The notes below the pieces were generated by a model. The model saw only the letters and a list, made by a program, of their open reading frames with translations. It had not been told where the DNA came from and ran no database searches. From NCBI RefSeq assembly GCF_006345805.1, contig NC_043014.1, positions 51,336,001-51,400,000 of the forward strand: a stretch of DNA of 64,000 nucleotides, written 5' to 3'. This DNA is from Octopus sinensis (lineage: Eukaryota). Shown here one piece after another: positions 24,838-52,987 of this stretch. Within the stretch, counting starts at the first letter, position 1. The number at the start of each line of letters is the position of its first letter. A program made the position numbers and the translations under genes.

Positions 24838-25600
24838 AAAAGTGTCTTCATTAGCCCCCGGCCCGACTGAGACCTTTGTAAGTGATTTTGTCTGAAAGAG
24901 ACTTTAAGAAGCTCGTTGTGTAAGTATCTGTCTGTCTGTTTGCCTCTTGCATCCCCTACAACGCACCCACATCCTTATATCTATATGTGTGTGTGATCCA
25001 CCGCTTGACAACCGTTGTTTGTTTATAGTCTAGTGACCGAGCGGTTCGGCTAAAGTAACTGATAGAATTAGTCGTGGCTTTAATATAAAGAGCTGAGAAG
25101 GCGGCGAGCTGGCAGAAACGTTAGCGTTCCGGGTGAAATGCGTAGCCGTATTTTGTCTGCCGTTTCGTTCTGAGCTCAAATTCCGCCGAGGTCGACTTTG
25201 CCTTTTATCCTTTCAGGGTCGATTAAATAAGTACCAGTTACGCACTGGGGTCGATATAATCGATTTGATCCGTTTGTCTGTCCTTGTTTGTCCCCTCTAT
25301 GTTTAGCCCCTTGTGTGTAGTAAAGAAATAGGTATTTCGTCTGCCGTTACGTTCTGAGTTCAAATTCCGCAGAGGTCGACTTTGCCTTTCATCCTTTCGG
25401 GGTCGATTAAATAAATACCAGTTACGCACTGGGCTCGATATAATCGACTTGATCCGTTTGTCTGTCCTTGTTTGTCCCCTCTGTGTTTAGCCCCTTGTGA
25501 GTAATAAAGAAATAAATATAAAGAGCTGAGTTTGATTTGTTTGGCTAAATCTACAGGGTGGTGCTTCAGCACGGCTGCAGTCCAATGTCTAAATCTAGTA
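24838..25600 (+). mobile_element. Old SINE family A copy split by a family B dimer
   Basis: Family A motifs at 24838-25080 and 25530-25600 lie either side of the insertion. Confidence 0.7.
25098..25514 (+). mobile_element. SINE family B (MetaSINE/Sauria-like core), partial tandem dimer with 16-bp TSD
   Basis: GGCGGCGAGCTGGCAGAAACGTTAGC head; GTCGACTTTGCCTTT(C/T)ATCCTTTC(A/G)GGGTCGAT core present twice. TSD AATATAAAGAGCTGAG at 25082-25097 and 25515-25530. Confidence 0.9.
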
Positions 25601-30795: not shown

Positions 30796-33120
30796 TATCA
30801 TTTTTTTGTTTTCATCTTAGTTTTTACTCGATGCAACCTGTAAGCTGTGGCCTTGCTGGAGCATCGCGATTACTGTCCCTATATTTTTAATTATCCTCCT
30901 ACTTTAAAACATTTAGGGAATGAAGATTTCGAAGTTGCTCCCTTCACTGGTGTTTCTTCCCGTGAATTAGGCTCACCTGTAATTCTTATCTGTAGAAGGA
31001 CCAGTTGCCTTTTGCGGACACTTTTCATCTATATTATGTAGGACGAGCAAAGTTTTTGAGAGGACATTGAAACGGATTTGGAATCGAGTATGCCTGTCAG
31101 TTGATGAGGTGGCGAATGGTAACGAAAAGACTTTGACATACATCACTGGTTGATTGATAGACAGAATGATTAATCATACAATGCGTTATTTAACTGATTA
31201 ATCATTGTAAGTTAAATAATGCAATCAATTGACTAATAATGAGTATGTCTTCATTATTTGCTTGTTACTCCTAAAACATTGACATCGTAGATGTTCGATT
31301 TTCATTCAATAAATTAAATCTGGTGCATATTCAGAACTGTAAAAAGAAATATTTTGAATTAGTTATCATAACATGAATCCTACATAATTATTGGAAGTTA
31401 TTTCCTGCCGAGGTGACTGAAGCATGTTGCTCATGAATACACCACCCGCTCCGGGAATCGAAACCACAATATTAAGATCCAAACAATCTTACGATCCTGA
31501 GTGAATTATTCTAATCACTAGGCAGTACACTCTCACTACTTTGAAGTTATCCATTTGAAATTGGCTCCTAATTGATGCCCAGCGTATTGTTTCTATCAAT
31601 AGTGACCATTATAATAATTTTCAGATTGAATAAATGCAGCAGTGGATATGATTGACTAAAAGAAACCCTGAAGCGCGGCCCCCAGACGGCTGCAGCTCAC
31701 AGAGTGACGCCATCACGTCAATAAAATTTGTGAAATATTGAAGATATACAGATAAACGGAGCTCAATTAGATTGAAAATTGAATAATTATTTCAATAACA
31801 ATATTCAAATCGTTTAACTCTAAATTCCATATGTTTTACATCTCGGCAGAACTGTTCCAATTGCTATAATTTGCCACTCGTTTTTTTTATTATTATTTTT
31901 ATTTTCATGGAGCAACAAAACAGTTTAGAGATTACGAAGAAGAAAATCGAGTTTAATAGACCGGAAATTCCAAACTACTCTATCAATAACTCATTATAGA
32001 AATATTATGAATGTGTAAGCTGTAGTTGTTGATGTTTGGCAGAGAATGTAGAGTGCAGATTAATGGAATTCTGAATGTATATGTTTAGGAGAATTGATTC
32101 CTGGCCGTATTAAATAAATTGAAGTCAGCTGTTGAAGGTCAATCCAATTTTCTAATATTCTAAACAAAATCAATATTGAATGTATTTCAGTTTTGCAATA
32201 AGACAAATTAAAGAAGATCAACATAAAATAAAGCATTATTATTATTATTATTATTGTTATTATTATTATTATTGTGTCAAGTTTTAGTTTCAAGGAATAA
32301 AACGGAGATTATTTTCTCGGGTTATTTATTTATTTTTTTTATGTAATATTTTGTTAGTGGAAATTGTTTGAATAAAATGGTGATTGATTTCTTGTCAGTT
32401 GGGTAAAAAAAAAAAGAGAAAAAAGAACAATACTGAGAGGGAAAGAAGAAAAGAAGACAAGGTAGAGAGTGTGTAAGAGAAACAAATTGAATATATGTAT
32501 CAGAAAGGCAGTGAGATAGGCTAAAAGGAGGGAATGTCATAAACCCTCAGAGAGAGAGAGGGAGTATTATATATATGTGTATATATATGTGTGTGTGTAA
32601 TGACTACAAAAGATATGAGATCTCAAGTAGAAAGAAATAAACATATAATTAGGAAAACATCAACAGAAATGTCAATATCATTGTAAGCGTTTCACAGCGA
32701 AGTATATGAATTTTTTCATCAGCTGTAACATCATATTACTTTGTATATGTGTGTTTCTCTCTCTCACATACGCACACACACATGCACACAAACGTGTGGC
32801 CGAAACTGTAGTGATAATTGGACACTTGACTGGTGAATAGACAGCCACGAATGTTCAGTTCTTTTATCGTCCATCTGTCCGTGTGTTTTCATTGTCGTCC
32901 GTTACGTTCCTGTTCCGTTTTTTAAAATTTATATATAAATATAACAGCGTACGTACACTTATTGCTCAGCTCATATATAGAACATATGTATGTACGTACG
33001 TTAATGTTTGTATTCCTGTGGAGTTGTAATGAAAACAATTTTGCATTAACTTGAAGGATTATCCAATAACTTTTGTAGAGTGCATTTGGTACCTTTCAGA
33101 AAAAAGGTTGACAGAGAATT

Positions 33121-33620
33121 CGAAGCTTTCAATAGGTAGTCCGATGAAGTCTAGAAGGTCGAAACTTCGAAGTCCCCAACACGAATATCTTTTGTAACAC
33201 ATTACTTCATTCAGCGTCATACATTCATTTCTCTCAAATTCTCTCTCTAATCTTCAACTAGATCTGGTGTTGTTGGTTTGATCAGAGTATTGCGAATCTT
33301 TCAAAGATGTTCATCGATGTTATTCATGCAAACGTTTTGTCGTATTTATATATTTCATTTTTGGATTCGGTTTGCAAGATTCTTTATATGAGTTCGTGTG
33401 TTGAAGCATATTCTGTTGTCTCTGGGGAGAGTCATTTTCTTTTTGTGCCTTATAATATAACACACCCACCGGTAAAATTTCCACTCTTTTCTTATTTCTA
33501 TTTTCCTAAAACTTTTGTTGCGTCTTGCAACATTTTCAATAGTCTTGATTATTGAAAAGGTTGCAAGACGCAACAAAAAAGAAAGCAGTGGAAGTTTTAC
33601 CGGTGAGCGTGTTTATATAA
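33121..33620 (+). mobile_element. PLE-type terminus with minimal hammerhead-like motif and inverted duplicated end
   Basis: CCGATGA..CGAAACTTCGAAGTC at 33141-33174. Tail-to-tail inverted repeat at 33450-33620. Confidence 0.55.
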
Positions 33621-35280
33621 TTGCACGAAAACTAGGAAAGATATGAATGGCTGAATTATACACCTCTATGTAGGCGTTCAGACTGCATATATCGGAGGTC
33701 TGTCAATGATCAAAGTGGACCATGCCTCGCCGCATTGTATACACAGACCAATCAAGGAAAACTCGTAGCTGCTCATGCCTACGAGAATCGCCATCTTTAC
33801 ACCGCCAATATTTAATCAAGAGAATGGCTGCCAATTTAGGAAGATACAGTTTGGCACCAGTTACAGCCGGCATAAAGACTTGATTTCTGCGTAAATTTAT
33901 TGACTCGATTTTAAATGGTTTGACCATTTTAAAATCATTTTTGAGTTAATGTCGAATCTCTTTCACTCCACCTACGCAACATAATGAATCAATGACGCAA
34001 TGGTATATTTATTCTTCTCACGGGACCGCCATACCTTCAGTCTAGACACCAAACATCAATTACCAGTTTTTTCTCTGTGTGCATTGAGCGCATCTTTCAA
34101 TGAATACACCCGAAAGTGATTTTGGTTTCTTCTTTGCAAATTAATGAAGCGTGAACAATTATTTAGCTTTATTTGTTTATTTTTTAATTGCTGGATGCTA
34201 GCAAACTACGTTGGATATTTATAAATAGACAGCAAGACTCATGGAAATGAAAATTCTATGTTTATAAATGTTCTTATTTCAATTTTGATGGTAATTCAGA
34301 GAATTGTATGTTGCTTGATGGTATAAATGATTTTGAATAAGGTTTCCTATTTCAAAACATACCAAAGACTGTCTTTAGCGTAATCACCAATCTTGCTTAT
34401 TTTCCATTTGGTTTCATCATATAAGCCTGTTTAAGCATTATACCCGAGCCCATCCTGAGGCTATCCTGTACTGGCTTTAGTCATTGTACAGCGTCCATGA
34501 TAGGAAATGATTTGAAATATAGTAGTCAGGCATATCAACTCCGATATTTATTTTCTAATGTCTCTAGCTTATGTCATTCCCTTTTGCCGAGACACTAAGT
34601 TATATAGACGTAAACAAACTATCATAGGTGGCCATGGGAGAAACACGTACACAGTTTTCGTCTACCAAGTTTACTTACAGAGTATTGGTCAGTCCGGGGC
34701 TGTACTAAAGACTTGCAAAAGACACTGCGCGGTGGTACTGAATGCAGCCATTACTATGCCAATGTGGGACGAAAATGTTATGAATATTTATTATTATTAA
34801 AGCTCCATGACGTTAATTGACTCTAAGAATACAAAACAATATTGCTGGTTTGTAATATAAGTAAGTAACTAGGCTTGTACTTCTGGTTTCCTTTTGACTG
34901 ATTCAAGCTCATACAGGTAACTCAGATAACCTGCTGAAAAATTCCATTTTATCTTTCGGAGATGTACTTGACAGGCAAATGATTTGATCTGACGTTGTGT
35001 GCTGAAGCTAAAAAAACAATTAAAGCTCGGAATACATTTTAGCCATTTAAAAACACAAACTTTACTTAAGGCTTGGCATTAATCTTTCCGTCGCACCCTC
35101 GGCAAACTAGTCGCAAAAGCACCTCCACTGCATCTTCATAAAATCTCATGAACGCCGGAAACTTTATCCTTAATACATCAAAAAACAATAACCATGCATT
35201 ATATTGCTTTGTTGTGGAAATTAATCTAATGTGACATTTTGTATGTATTTTAATTACAATATAATTTACCAAATGATTTA

Positions 35281-35355
35281 CAATTCTTTTCTTTTATTTT
35301 TCAGGTAAGTTCACTGCGATATTCATTATTATCCTCCTATTCCGAGGCCGTGAGT
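35281..35355 (+). other. Candidate recursive splice site (ratchet point) with 45-nt RS-exon (35305-35349)
   Basis: ttcttttcttttatttttcAG|GTAAGT (AG 35303-35304, GT 35305-35306). No AG dinucleotide from 35120 to 35302. Branch-like CTAAT at ~35226. Downstream donor GCC|GTGAGT at 35350. Confidence 0.65.
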
Positions 35356-35704
35356 GCACAATTCCTTTTTCTTTCTTATTTTGTAAATGCTATATCAAAT
35401 TGGCGATTTGTTAAAATGATACCAAACAGGGTTTCAATCACGAAAACCCTTTCTATATTGATTTATTAAGTTATATAAAACACAAGAGTTCAGGGTGTAA
35501 CTTTACCAATGTTCTTTATAAGTACTGAGAACTTAAAAGGCAGCAATCAAATAAATATTTTGACAGATATTTCTCTAACCAGTGTCTTTGTAAAAATTCT
35601 AAGATGTTCAAGTAACTTTTGAAATACTGTTCCAACTTTCGGTATGAAATATAGAATATGGTACCCATCCCACTTCAAGCCGCTAATCAACTACTTTTGT
35701 ACAC

Positions 35705-35935
35705 GGCGAGCTGGCAGAAACGTTAGCACGTCGGGCAAAATGCGTAGCCTTATTTCGTCTGCCGTTACGTTGTGAGTTCTAATTCTGCCGAGGTCGACTT
35801 TGCCTCTCATCCTTTCGGGGTCGATTAAATAAGTACCAGTTACGCACTGGGGTCGATATAATCGACTTAATCCATTTGTCTGTCCTTGTTTGTCCTCTCT
35901 GTGTTTAGCCCCTTGTGGGTAGTAAAAAGATATAT
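35705..35935 (+). mobile_element. SINE family B with 10-bp TSD
   Basis: TSD TTTTGTACAC at 35695-35704 and 35936-35945. Confidence 0.9.
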
Positions 35936-36174
35936 TTTTGTACACAGTTATTAATGCATAATTTATTCATAACTTACGCATACTTTTATATATATGTTGT
36001 GTAAATGAAATACCCCCCCACACACACACACAAACAACTTTAGTTTTCTGTAAAAAATTCAATAAAGTGTTTCCCTGATGAAGCAATGATGCTAAACATT
36101 GAAATGCATTTGGGATGTCTACTGCTGAGTTCCAAACAACCAAGGTGATGAAATGTACGTAGTTGCAAATGATA

Positions 36175-36265
36175 GAAAGACACTTGCCCATTGTGCCACG
36201 TAGTGAGGCTAAACCCAGAACCATGTGTCTGGGGAGTAAGGTTCCTATCATACAGCCACGCCTAG
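36175..36265 (-). mobile_element. SINE family A head fragment
   Basis: GACACTTGCCCA..GTGCCACG..AACCCAGAACCATGT..CAGCCACGCC. Confidence 0.65.
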
Positions 36266-36345
36266 ATTTACGTGAAAATAATGCATGTAGGAATGTATGA
36301 AATGTCTTTAGATGCACCACACATGAGATGGTCTTGTGGGATAAC

Positions 36346-36830
36346 TGTTACACCCCGGTAGACTCTTCACCCTTGTCGTGGTCTCCGTCACGGATCGGCA
36401 CCAAAGTATAAGCGACGAGTAGCGTTGTTGTCAATCTGATGAAGTAGGAAGCGGCGGGCGCTGTGGTGGATGTCAAACGACGAGGTCGAGTGGCTCGACA
36501 ATGGAAGAAACACATGGACACACGCTCATACACTTGAAAGGCGTTTGGGCGCTGGCTCTCCGGTAAGGAGCCGCTGAGAGAAAGAGAGACCGTGGAGCAG
36601 AGGTAGCTGCGAAGCTTTCGATCAGCGCGGGATGACTACCAACGACTTCTTTTGCATGTTCTTACTTATTCATCGGAGGAATGCTGTTGGCGTACCCGCT
36701 TCCACGTGGTCGATCCATCGTTCGCTTCAATATCGAACTCAGTGGTGAATAGACGGGACGTATGAAACAGATCAGAAATACATAACCAGCAATGTTACAG
36801 GTGATTGCAAAAGCTGGCGCCCACCTCACA
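36346..36830 (-). mobile_element. Solo-LTR-like GC-rich segment
   Basis: Sharp ~485-bp GC/CpG-rich block; minus strand runs TGTGAGG...GGGGTGTAACA (TG..CA). No matching TSD seen. Confidence 0.45.
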
Positions 36831-36988
36831 TCTGGTTTTTAGTCTTTGTGATTATTGGTTATGTGTTGCACTTTTATGCATGTGTAGACGTATATGTAAG
36901 CTATATACACATACATATATACACATAAATATGTATGGATATATCTGTATATGCATATATATACGTGTATATATAGATTTATGTATAT

Positions 36989-42676: not shown

Positions 42677-43058
42677 GGAGGCGCAATGGCCCAGTGGTTA
42701 GGGCAGCGGACTCGCGGTCGTATGATCACGGTTTCGATTCCCGGACCGGGCGTTGTGGGTGTTTATTGAGCGAAAACACCTAAAAGCTCCACGAGGCTCC
42801 GGCAGGGATGGTGGTGATCCCTGCTGTACTCTTTCACCACAACTTTCTCTCACTCTTACTTCCTGTTTCTGTTGTACCTGTATTTCAAAGGGCCGGCCTT
42901 GTCACTCTCTGTGTCACGCTGAATATCCCCGAGAACTACGTTAAGGGTACACGTGTCTGTGGAGTGCTCACGTTAATTTCACGAGCAGGCTGTTCCGTTG
43001 ATCGGATCAACCGGAACCCTCATCGTCGTAACCGACGGAGTGCTTCCATTCCATTTTC
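42677..43058 (+). mobile_element. SINE family C, tail type 2, young copy inserted in an older copy
   Basis: Intact head at 42677. TSD-like ATTTCAAAGAG at 42662-42672 and 43059-43069. Confidence 0.85.
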
Positions 43059-43548
43059 ATTTCAAAGAGCCAGCCTTGTCACACTGTGTGTCAGGTTAAA
43101 CACCACCGAGAATTACGTTAAGGGCATAGGTGTCTGTGGAGTGCTCAGCCACTTGCACGTTAATTTCACGAGCAGGCTGTTCCGTTGATCGGATCAACCG
43201 GAACCCTCATCGTCGTAACCGACGGAGTGCTTCCATTCCATTTTCATTTCAAAGAGCCAGCCTTGTCACACTGTGTGTCAGGTTAAACACCACCGAGAAT
43301 TACGTTAAGGGCATAGGTGTCTGTGGAGTGCTCAGCCACTTGCACGTTAATTTCACGAGCCGGCTGTTCCGTTGATCGGATCAACCGGAACCCTCATCGT
43401 CGTAACCGACGGAGTGCTTCCATTCCATTTTCATTTCAAAGAGCCAGCCTTGTCACACTGTGTGTCAGGTTAAACACCACCGAGAATTACGTTAAGGGCA
43501 TAGGTGTCTGTGGAGTGCTCAGCCACTTGCATGTTAATTTCACGAGCA
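42970..43548 (+). repeat. 187-bp tandem repeat (~3 copies) derived from SINE C tail
   Basis: TTCAAAGAGCCAGCC recurs at 43061, 43248 and 43435. Confidence 0.95.
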
Positions 43549-50759: not shown

Positions 50760-50814
<55 letters not shown>

Positions 50815-50816
<2 letters not shown>

Positions 50817-50878
50817 AAATATTACATTATATAATTAGGGCTTAGTAAAATAAATTACTTTGCCACATACTGGACTTA

Positions 50879-50921
<43 letters not shown>

Positions 50922-51509
50922 GAGAGTATGCTGCAAAGTTACACGCCGTGAGAAAAAGAAAATACAGGAGAGTTCCTTAATTATCTTTTTATTCAACATA
51001 TTCCCCTCTCAGAACCATTCAGTTAAGACCTGTAAAAGAACTCTGCAGTTTGGGACTTCCAGCCAGTCCTTTCGCGACATCCTTAAAGCCAGTAGCTTTT
51101 CGCTGCCCTCTCGTATATATATCTTGATTCTTGTTTCAGTCATTGGACTGCAGCCATGTTGGGGACACTGTTTTGAATAGTTAAGCCGAACAAATTGATT
51201 TAGTTTTTAACCTATGGTACTTATTCCAAAGGTGTCTTTTGTCAAAACTTCTCTCATGGCCATGTGACAAACCGATACCTGTTATGAAGCTGTGATAAAG
51301 GACGAAGAAAGAAAGAAAGATATACGTCCCCATATGTGACAATCTTCATTCAGTTTCCTTCCGCCAAATCTATTCGCAACGCTATGCTCATTCCGTGGCT
51401 GTAGTAGAAGAAACCTGCACGAATTACCGCACAGTAAGACTGAACACTATGCCACGTGTATAAAAAAAGATTCTCTCAACAGTACAGCATCGCTGATATA
51501 TACATATAT

Positions 51510-51557
<48 letters not shown>

Positions 51558-51630
51558 ATATATATACAAAATATTACATTATATAATTAGGGCTTAGTAA
51601 AATAAATTACTTTGCCACATACTGGACTTA

Positions 51631-51669
<39 letters not shown>

Positions 51670-52257
51670 GAGAGTATGCTGCAAAGTTACACGCCGTGAG
51701 AAAAAGAAAATACAGGAGAGTTCCTTAATTATCTTTTTATTCAACATATTCCCCTCTCAGAACCATTCAGTTAAGACCTGTAAAAGAACTCTGCAGTTTG
51801 GGACTTCCAGCCAGTCCTTTCGCGACATCCTTAAAGCCAGTAGCTTTTCGCTGCCCTCTCGTATATATATCTTGATTCTTGTTTCAGTCATTGGACTGCA
51901 GCCATGTTGGGGACACTGTTTTGAATAGTTAAGCCGAACAAATTGATTTAGTTTTTAACCTATGGTACTTATTCCAAAGGTGTCTTTTGTCAAAACTTCT
52001 CTCATGGCCATGTGACAAACCGATACCTGTTATGAAGCTGTGATAAAGGACGAAGAAAGAAAGAAAGATATACGTCCCCATATGTGACAATCTTCATTCA
52101 GTTTCCTTCCGCCAAATCTATTCGCAACGCTATGCTCATTCCGTGGCTGTAGTAGAAGAAACCTGCACGAATTACCGCACAGTAAGACTGAACACTATGC
52201 CACGTGTATAAAAAAAGATTCTCTCAACAGTACAGCATCGCTGATATATACATATAT

Positions 52258-52307
<50 letters not shown>

Positions 52308-52378
52308 ATATATACAAAATATTACATTATATAATTAGGGCTTAGTAAAATAAATTACTTTGCCACATACTGGACTTA

Positions 52379-52417
<39 letters not shown>

Positions 52418-52987
52418 GAGAGTATGCTGCAAAGTTACACGCCGTGAGAAAAAGAAAATACAGGAGAGTTCCTTAATTATCTTTTTATTCAACATATTCC
52501 CCTCTCAGAACCATTCAGTTAAGACCTGTAAAAGAACTCTGCAGTTTGGGACTTCCAGCCAGTCCTTTCGCGACATCCTTAAAGCCAGTAGCTTTTCGCT
52601 GCCCTCTCGTATATATATCTTGATTCTTGTTTCAGTCATTGGACTGCAGCCATGTTGGGGACACTGTTTTGAATAGTTAAGCCGAACAAATTGATTTAGT
52701 TTTTAACCTATGGTACTTATTCCAAAGGTGTCTTTTGTCAAAACTTCTCTCATGGCCATGTGACAAACCGATACCTGTTATGAAGCTGTGATAAAGGACG
52801 AAGAAAGAAAGATATACGTCCCCATATGTGACAATCTTCATTCAGTTTCCTTCCGCCAAATCTATTCGCAACGCTATGCTCATTCCGTGGCTGTAGTAGA
52901 AGAAACCTGCACGAATTACCGCACAGTAAGACTGAACACTATGCCACGTGTATAAAAAAAGATTCTCTCAACAGTACAGCATCGCTG

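Follow-up and report, generated by a model that had tools for sequence, protein, structure and literature searches.

A candidate recursive splice site in Octopus sinensis as part of a near-regular series of similar sites in a putative giant intron

Introduction

In this study, we describe a candidate recursive splicing (RS) site at position 35,305 of a 64,000-nucleotide (nt) window of the Octopus sinensis genome (C18:51,336,001-51,400,000; genome size 2.72 Gb), where the window means the whole stretch of DNA that was analyzed. At this site a strong 3′ splice site directly adjoins a consensus 5′ splice site on the plus strand. Judged from the sequence, it is quite probably a ratchet point whose cryptic exon is skipped most of the time, and the first of seven such sites, which lie on the same strand at near-regular distances and end before the exons of an immunoglobulin (Ig) domain adhesion gene. 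The ratchet series would likely allow an intron of at least 790 kb to leave in pieces of about 100 kb. Beyond this locus, we lean towards the view that recursive splicing of the fly type is widespread in the octopus and advances by nearly constant steps of about 100 kb, several times the fly step, thereby removing near-megabase introns of neural adhesion genes in at least eight equal pieces.

For flies and vertebrates, there is proof of defined recursive splicing. It may be an ancient device of the Bilateria, and long introns may depend on it. Full-text literature searches, with most subscription papers outside them, returned no recursive splicing in octopus, squid or molluscs, the few hits being unrelated as judged by their titles and the opening of their abstracts. 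The mechanism itself is known; within these searches, novelty lies in the lineage, in how many sites there are and in their spacing of about 100 kb. If the reading is true, defined recursive splicing extends to the third great bilaterian branch, there is a species-scaled upper limit on the length that the spliceosome bridges per step, and such sites flag giant genes whose first exons are missed by current annotation. With seven or eight even sites, the octopus locus supplies the precise positions needed to put the idea to a decisive test, and it would serve as a natural gauge for the reach of one splicing step.

Results

Seven high-scoring sites on one strand

All positions are given relative to the window and extend past it. 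The sequence was covered without a break from 200 kb upstream to 720 kb downstream of the window, and then at 814-884 kb. Among 7,525 AG/GY sites in 984 kb (the slash marks the splice boundary, Y a pyrimidine), the seven best all lie on the plus strand with scores of 20.0-26.6, followed by a next best score of 16.8; the site at 35,305 ranks fifth. Their positions are listed in Table 1. The gaps between neighboring sites are 91.0, 90.5, 204.9, 108.8, 100.7 and 115.4 kb, and a minimum gap of 90.5 kb has a probability of 0.0007 under uniform placement (0.07% of trials). The length of the last gap is uncertain because it spans a 100-N scaffold break. At the mid-point of the double-length gap, a weaker site was found (rank thirteenth), with which the mean step becomes 101.6 kb and the coefficient of variation 0.09; its inclusion was chosen after seeing the site. 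The series thus combines an excess on one strand (7/7 on plus) with even placement.

A simpler count gave the same direction: strong acceptors were followed by GTAAGT in 4 of 1,174 cases on the plus strand versus 0 of 1,191 on the minus strand (864 kb), and in a 664-kb version of this count 0.21 cases were expected, with P=0.0014 without the seed site. Two of the seven series sites have GTGAGT as donor. Downstream of four of the seven, a further GTRAGT (R, purine) occurs at a distance of 28-76 nt. When measured by the best downstream donor, the cryptic exon at 35,305 is 45 nt long, compared with 94, 23 or 41, 20 or 28, 76 and 34 nt and one case with none nearby for the other sites.

The original prediction had placed the window in a giant plus-strand intron removed stepwise. 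Sequence statistics argue for this idea, with use of the sites remaining putative: there are six more equally strong, near-regularly spaced sites on the same strand and none on the other, a plus-strand gene closes the series, and the genome holds an excess of such sites, in which a second donor follows after about 50-75 nt.

Anatomy of the site at 35,305

The elements read earlier around the site, namely an AG-free run, a pyrimidine tract, TTTCAG/GTAAGT and a second donor 45 nt further on, were all recovered at their predicted positions (Table 1). No AG occurs between 35119 and 35303 on the plus strand, and AG-free gaps of at least 183 nt are rare (5 of 32,231 unmasked AG-to-AG gaps on this strand). 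The acceptor score of 12.6 falls within the range of 9.2-14.0 that the same scorer assigned to six real acceptors of the downstream gene. TTTAC and the more distant CTAAT were chosen as branch point candidates by the branch point consensus. In fly ratchet points, branch points are located at -36 to -21 (bioRxiv 10.1101/006163).

The boundary 35304/35305 is the sole YAG/GTAAGT in the window on both strands. The core motif alone is weak evidence, because 8 of 100 shuffled versions of the window contained YYYYNYAGGTRAGT one or more times. A stricter seven-pyrimidine pattern misses the site because of the A at 35296. As had been claimed, the stretch is unique: it has one match in the genome in a search skipping common words, and it was left unmasked by self-BLAST and low-complexity filtering. 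The claim that the 45-nt exon preserves the frame and is open in two frames also held (VSSLRYSLLSSYSEA and KFTAIFIIILLFRG), the third frame containing a stop. With a downstream donor at this distance, the element corresponds to a short cryptic exon of the kind of about 50 nt that is defined by its downstream donor, and its phase 1 fits the acceptor of the first Ig exon. RNA folding around the 45-nt exon gave a z of -0.18 and hence no stable structure, and a comparison of the window with Rfam returned no matches. Echoing the AG-free zone, a 220-nt AG-free run at L090:2377-2648 ends 50 nt before the last series site.

Table 1. Positions of the candidate splicing elements around 35,305 and of the series sites
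Feature	Position in window	Position on C18	Strand	Basis or remark
AG-exclusion zone	35120..35302		+	183 nt, AG-to-AG gap count
CTAAT, more distant branch point candidate	35226-35230		+	sequence
Candidate branch point TTTAC, A at 35280, 24 nt before AG	35277..35281		+	sequence; putative use
Polypyrimidine tract and CAG 3′ splice site	35284..35304 (tract 35284-35302)		+	acceptor score 12.6
GTAAGT, donor to be regenerated after the first splicing step (putative ratchet point)	35305..35310		+	boundary TTTCAG/GTAAGT at 35304/35305
Candidate RS-exon	35305..35349		+	45 nt, frame-preserving, open in phase 0 and phase 1
GCC/GTGAGT, downstream donor putatively defining the RS-exon	35350..35355		+	boundary at 35349/35350
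U-rich tract after the downstream donor, similar to the tract before the acceptor	35362..35382		+	sequence
Series site 1	35,305	51,371,305	+	
Series site 2	126,311	51,462,311	+	
Series site 3	216,818	51,552,818	+	
Weaker site CAG/GTGAGA	321,771	51,657,771		score 15.3
Series site 4	421,679	51,757,679	+	
Series site 5	530,509	51,866,509	+	
Series site 6	631,215	51,967,215	+	
Series site 7	746,648	52,082,648	+	

Genome-wide occurrence of the motif

A genome-wide motif count yielded 202 matches for a pyrimidine tract followed by AG and GTAAGT versus 29 for a control with the same letters. The first number is composed of 134 matches to 12 pyrimidines-AG-GTAAGT and 68 matches to 11 pyrimidines-purine-YAG-GTAAGT, two disjoint patterns, for which the same letters arranged as GATAGT gave 26 and 3 matches, respectively. 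Read backwards, the GTAAGT patterns had 59 and 28 matches and the GATAGT patterns 89 and 18, the latter above their forward counts of 26 and 3. Since the reversed-pattern control is noisy, the same-letter control was preferred.

The matches also cluster by strand. The first 100 of the 134 matches form 9 neighbor pairs within 300 kb (1.85 expected), of which 8 are on the same strand, compared with 2 of 6 in the control. For a combined pair count, 100 of the 134 and 54 of the 68 matches (contigs within the listed range) were used, and pairs closer than 5 kb as well as pairs on C18 were dropped. Of the remaining neighbor pairs, those within 300 kb shared a strand in 11 of 12 cases and those within 1 Mb in 21 of 23, versus 6 of 11 in the control; the close same-strand pairs are 73-236 kb apart.

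Second donors were counted as GTRAG near the first 20 sites of each pattern (n=40) versus 20 GATAGT controls. At 46-76 nt downstream, 12 of 40 sites had one, compared with 2 of 20 controls; the counts were 3/40 versus 1/20 at 15-45 nt and 1/40 versus 2/20 at 77-105 nt. The background for 46-76 nt is about 5% (25 matches over approximately 460 GTAAGT, an extrapolated count, in 990 kb), against which 12 of 40 corresponds to p ~1e-6 as calculated by hand.

Several clusters emerged from these counts. Six tight-pattern AG/GTAAGT sites, all on the minus strand, lie within 1.1 Mb at C13:49,512,245-50,616,988, a region that is a candidate for a second giant recursively spliced gene. Among smaller same-strand groups, one at C13:4.21-4.38 Mb has three sites 73 and 97 kb apart, and others lie at C8:24.4, C8:45.0, C15:39.1 and C3:3.9 Mb.

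The presumptive host gene

Downstream of the series, Ig exons were found on the plus strand at 824.8-867.5 kb. The first of them has a strong phase-1 acceptor at 824,805 (C18:52,160,805) and follows the last series site after 78 kb. Two outcomes had been predicted beforehand, one more site at 836-867 kb or, alternatively, coding exons that close the series. Coding exons were encountered, and no further series site was found, the best score among 512 sites being 14.9. No coding exon was recognized across the 984 kb among the matches listed, in agreement with the earlier statement that none is convincing near the site. Because of the shared strand, the position and the lack of any other recognized gene, we infer that the 35,305 series and the Ig exons belong to one transcript.

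The Ig exons match an O. sinensis protein named NCAM1-like; relatives from O. bimaculoides, O. vulgaris and Argonauta carry the names LSAMP-like or NCAM1-like. The protein comprises three Ig domains, an FN3-like stretch and a hydrophobic C-terminal tail. The FN3-like stretch scores below the Pfam cut-off and was seen behind the third Ig domain in 3 of 3 proteins. The best matches among solved structures are MDGA1, contactins, NEGR1, DIPs and neurotrimin. IgLON proteins have three Ig domains and a glycosylphosphatidylinositol signal and lack FN3, so the host, with its FN3-like stretch, falls outside this family. Its architecture of three Ig domains, a weak FN3 match and a hydrophobic C-terminal tail resembles that of membrane-anchored adhesion proteins of the Klingon and Wrapper type in flies, to which it may be orthologous. 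A shorter homologue was not found, and there was no closer full-length relative among the 150 matches listed. A Hox hypothesis with a Ubx-like start was rejected, as no homeodomain match lay near C18:51-52 Mb among the 149 matches listed (150 of 275 candidates scored).

Judged by the series, the gene would extend far beyond its public models. These either begin no earlier than the first Ig exon or include exons that look like filler added by a predictor. The public octopod models of the Ig gene (L095:805-872 to L099:3535) differ at both ends, and the O. sinensis model begins only midway through the first Ig domain. A recognizable signal peptide occurs in 0 of 4 octopod models and is present in the more distant homologue P0005. 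Scans with P0005 and for an ATG, a hydrophobic stretch and a donor gave 145 candidates, mostly microsatellite and none convincing, so that the true first exon was not found. The least implausible candidate for a signal-peptide exon among them, an ATG-started hydrophobic frame of 39 codons with the phase-1 donor AAG/GTATGG, is located at L015:5089-5206 and precedes the site by 170 kb.

The O. vulgaris model P0012 joins a 76-nt element of the site at 631,215 to the Ig exon. Over this element, 25 of 25 residues agree, but the two species are too closely related for the agreement to indicate constraint. The first eight residues of P0012 fit fragments of 16 nt and 8 nt near the site at 530,509. As these tiny first fragments resemble the output of a gene predictor, the P0012 exon was dropped as evidence for expression; the model shows colinearity and intact signals.

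Contigs of presumed RNA runs across the site

Four of 14 listed runs were aligned to 32600-36890; all are assembled contigs, and eight of the runs were taken as RNA by guess. A contig of run X1 covers 35316-35556 without differences and a contig of run X2 starts at 35297; both cross the 35349/35350 donor unspliced, which would fit nascent RNA, a recursive intermediate or DNA alike. Cover of unique sequence begins at 35316, 35297 and 35429 in X1, X2 and X5, respectively, and the uncovered stretch 35057-35296 was not counted as evidence; the DNA-like run X11 continues through it. X11 has 26 differences in 525 positions over 35170-35694 and no gaps (95% identity). In record 16 of X2, 20 unaligned letters precede 35297, starting exactly where the T run starts, and a junction or a length allele of the T run fit them equally well. 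Use of the 35,305 site is neither shown nor contradicted by these contigs. Behind the site, at a distance of 390 nt, a short interspersed nuclear element (SINE) copy at 35695-35935 is contained in the assembly and missing from the X2, X5 and X11 contigs (joint 35694-35936). It is a recent or polymorphic insertion.

Discussion

Proposed mechanism and points against it

By analogy to fly and mouse work, the 45-nt stretch would be recognized as an exon through its acceptor and the GTGAGT donor. The upstream exon would then splice to 35305, whereby the GTAAGT donor would be recreated and would outcompete GCC/GTGAGT, and the 45 nt would be removed together with the next intron segment. After another six or seven such steps along the series, the upstream exon would reach the Ig exon.

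Several results weigh against this reading. Among the matches listed in the presumed RNA contigs, there is no splice junction at either 35304/35305 or 35349/35350, with 113 joints and 1,181 loose ends lying beyond that list. The AG/GY scorer and its weights are custom and simple; ahead of the Ig exon the scan covered the sequence up to 784 kb and again from 814 kb, and 100-N scaffold gaps lie near -133 kb and within 714-724 kb. At site 421,679, no donor-like sequence above the cut-off was detected within 124 nt. Regarding the genome-wide counts, the composition control GTAGAT had 157 matches and thereby exceeded the test pattern, most of the 100 matches listed being two repeated words. The tight GTGAGT pattern showed no genome-wide excess (14 versus 12), though two of the seven series sites are of this type. 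One six-site cluster on C13 contributes 5 of the 21 same-strand pairs. Compared with the 20 controls, the second-donor excess is not significant (p ~0.08, by hand), and over the whole range of 15-105 nt there is no difference (15/40 versus 5/20).

Alternative explanations

An expressed RS-exon resembling mI and mII of Ubx, with a recursive site and the 45-nt exon kept in a sizeable share of mRNAs, appears unlikely. Such an exon would add xKFTAIFIIILLFRG, possibly the hydrophobic core of the missing signal peptide, which P0005 has and the octopod models lack in recognizable form. In its favor, the KFTAIFIIILLFRG frame is open, has phase 1-1 and matches the reading frame of the first Ig exon, the element is first in the series, and 45 nt is the only cryptic exon length of the series divisible by three. 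However, the peptide is absent from five related proteins, four of them without a true N-terminus, and by eye it is unlike the 15 residues before the junction in P0005. Direct joining to the Ig exon would put a proline right after the likely cleavage site, contrary to the usual rule. Furthermore, hydrophobic peptides arise easily from T-rich DNA, and the X1 and X2 contigs continue unspliced through the downstream donor.

Ordinary splicing, in which 35305-35349 would be a plain small exon with an unused GTAAGT or 35304/35305 the donor of an unrecognized first exon with a T-rich end, is very unlikely. The 183-nt AG-free zone and the strong pyrimidine tract form the anatomy of an acceptor, and exons merely starting with these letters would be expected equally often with GATAGT, which is seven times rarer. 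AG/GTAAGT is also the ordinary donor consensus, so that some of the genome-wide matches would be plain donors. Upstream of 35,305 there is no strong series site, and it might therefore be of another type than the other six, but the next site follows at the same step (91 kb) as the rest of the series.

A chance motif in untranscribed or indifferent DNA is highly improbable, despite the core pattern in the window shuffles and the choice of this window from many, as six more top-scoring sites are regularly spaced on the same strand, three of them (530,509, 631,215 and 746,648) found after the weights had been set, and this strand is that of the gene found last.

Comparison with known systems

Among known systems, the ratchet points of Drosophila (Ubx, kuz, osp, fz, luna) are closest to the putative octopus ratchet series, as they share the strong acceptor followed by a donor, the second donor about 50 nt further on, several evenly placed sites per intron and the excess on one strand. 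More than 500 fly ratchet points are reported, with RS-exons of about 50 nt that are usually skipped (PMC8605326). Fly recursive introns are 11-133 kb long with 1-6 sites and segments of 2.6-63.6 kb (bioRxiv 10.1101/006163), and the evenly placed ratchet points delimit segments of 9.1 kb on average (PMC6110457). The octopus series differs by its larger scale, as its 7-8 sites would divide at least 790 kb into segments of about 100 kb. For the fly, junctions, sawtooth patterns and lariats have proven the sites, whereas the octopus sites are known here from sequence. The microexons mI and mII of Ubx (51 nt) resemble the 45-nt element as short, frame-preserving exons opening with a donor consensus; their inclusion is known and they are ultraconserved, while the octopus exon is a candidate.

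Mammalian RS sites (Lsamp, Cadm2, Ntm, Hs6st3) likewise have AGGTAAGT with a pyrimidine-rich upstream stretch. They occur in the first introns of neuronal genes of great length, with Ig-domain adhesion genes among the hosts. An Ig adhesion gene as host in the octopus parallels mouse Lsamp and Ntm; the octopus host, with its extra FN3-like domain, is not an IgLON. In mouse brain, 19 sites were described, 75% of them in first introns and four in Lsamp (PMC8797253), in contrast to the fly-like excess in octopus, which comprises at least 170 tight-pattern sites over the control.

Prediction of ratchet points by motif excess alone has a precedent (Shepard 2009, PMC2773006). There, the motif exceeded the complementary strand 4- to 22-fold in insects (bee, beetle, mosquito) and sea urchin (8.2 for the latter), and vertebrate long introns had no strand excess (ratio of at most 1.5). 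The word 'mollusc' is absent from its main text, and the portions available hold no analysis of spacing or second donors. For lungfish, a study reports no general reliance on recursive splicing (bioRxiv 10.1101/2024.12.11.627982).

Further observations in the region

An intronless, degraded copy resembling the U11/U12 snRNP 35 kDa protein was found on the minus strand at L055:8878-9261 (E 2.8e-27) and is probably a processed pseudogene inside the giant intron. Within the window, a unit of about 748 nt is present three times at ~50,800-52,800, with identical acceptor-like sites at 51290, 52038 and 52786, which is either a tandem duplication or an assembly artefact. Two near-perfect tandem arrays were also detected, one at 42969-43548 with a 187-nt unit (3.1 copies, 99% identical) and one at 25148-25514 with two copies of a 184-nt SINE-like unit.
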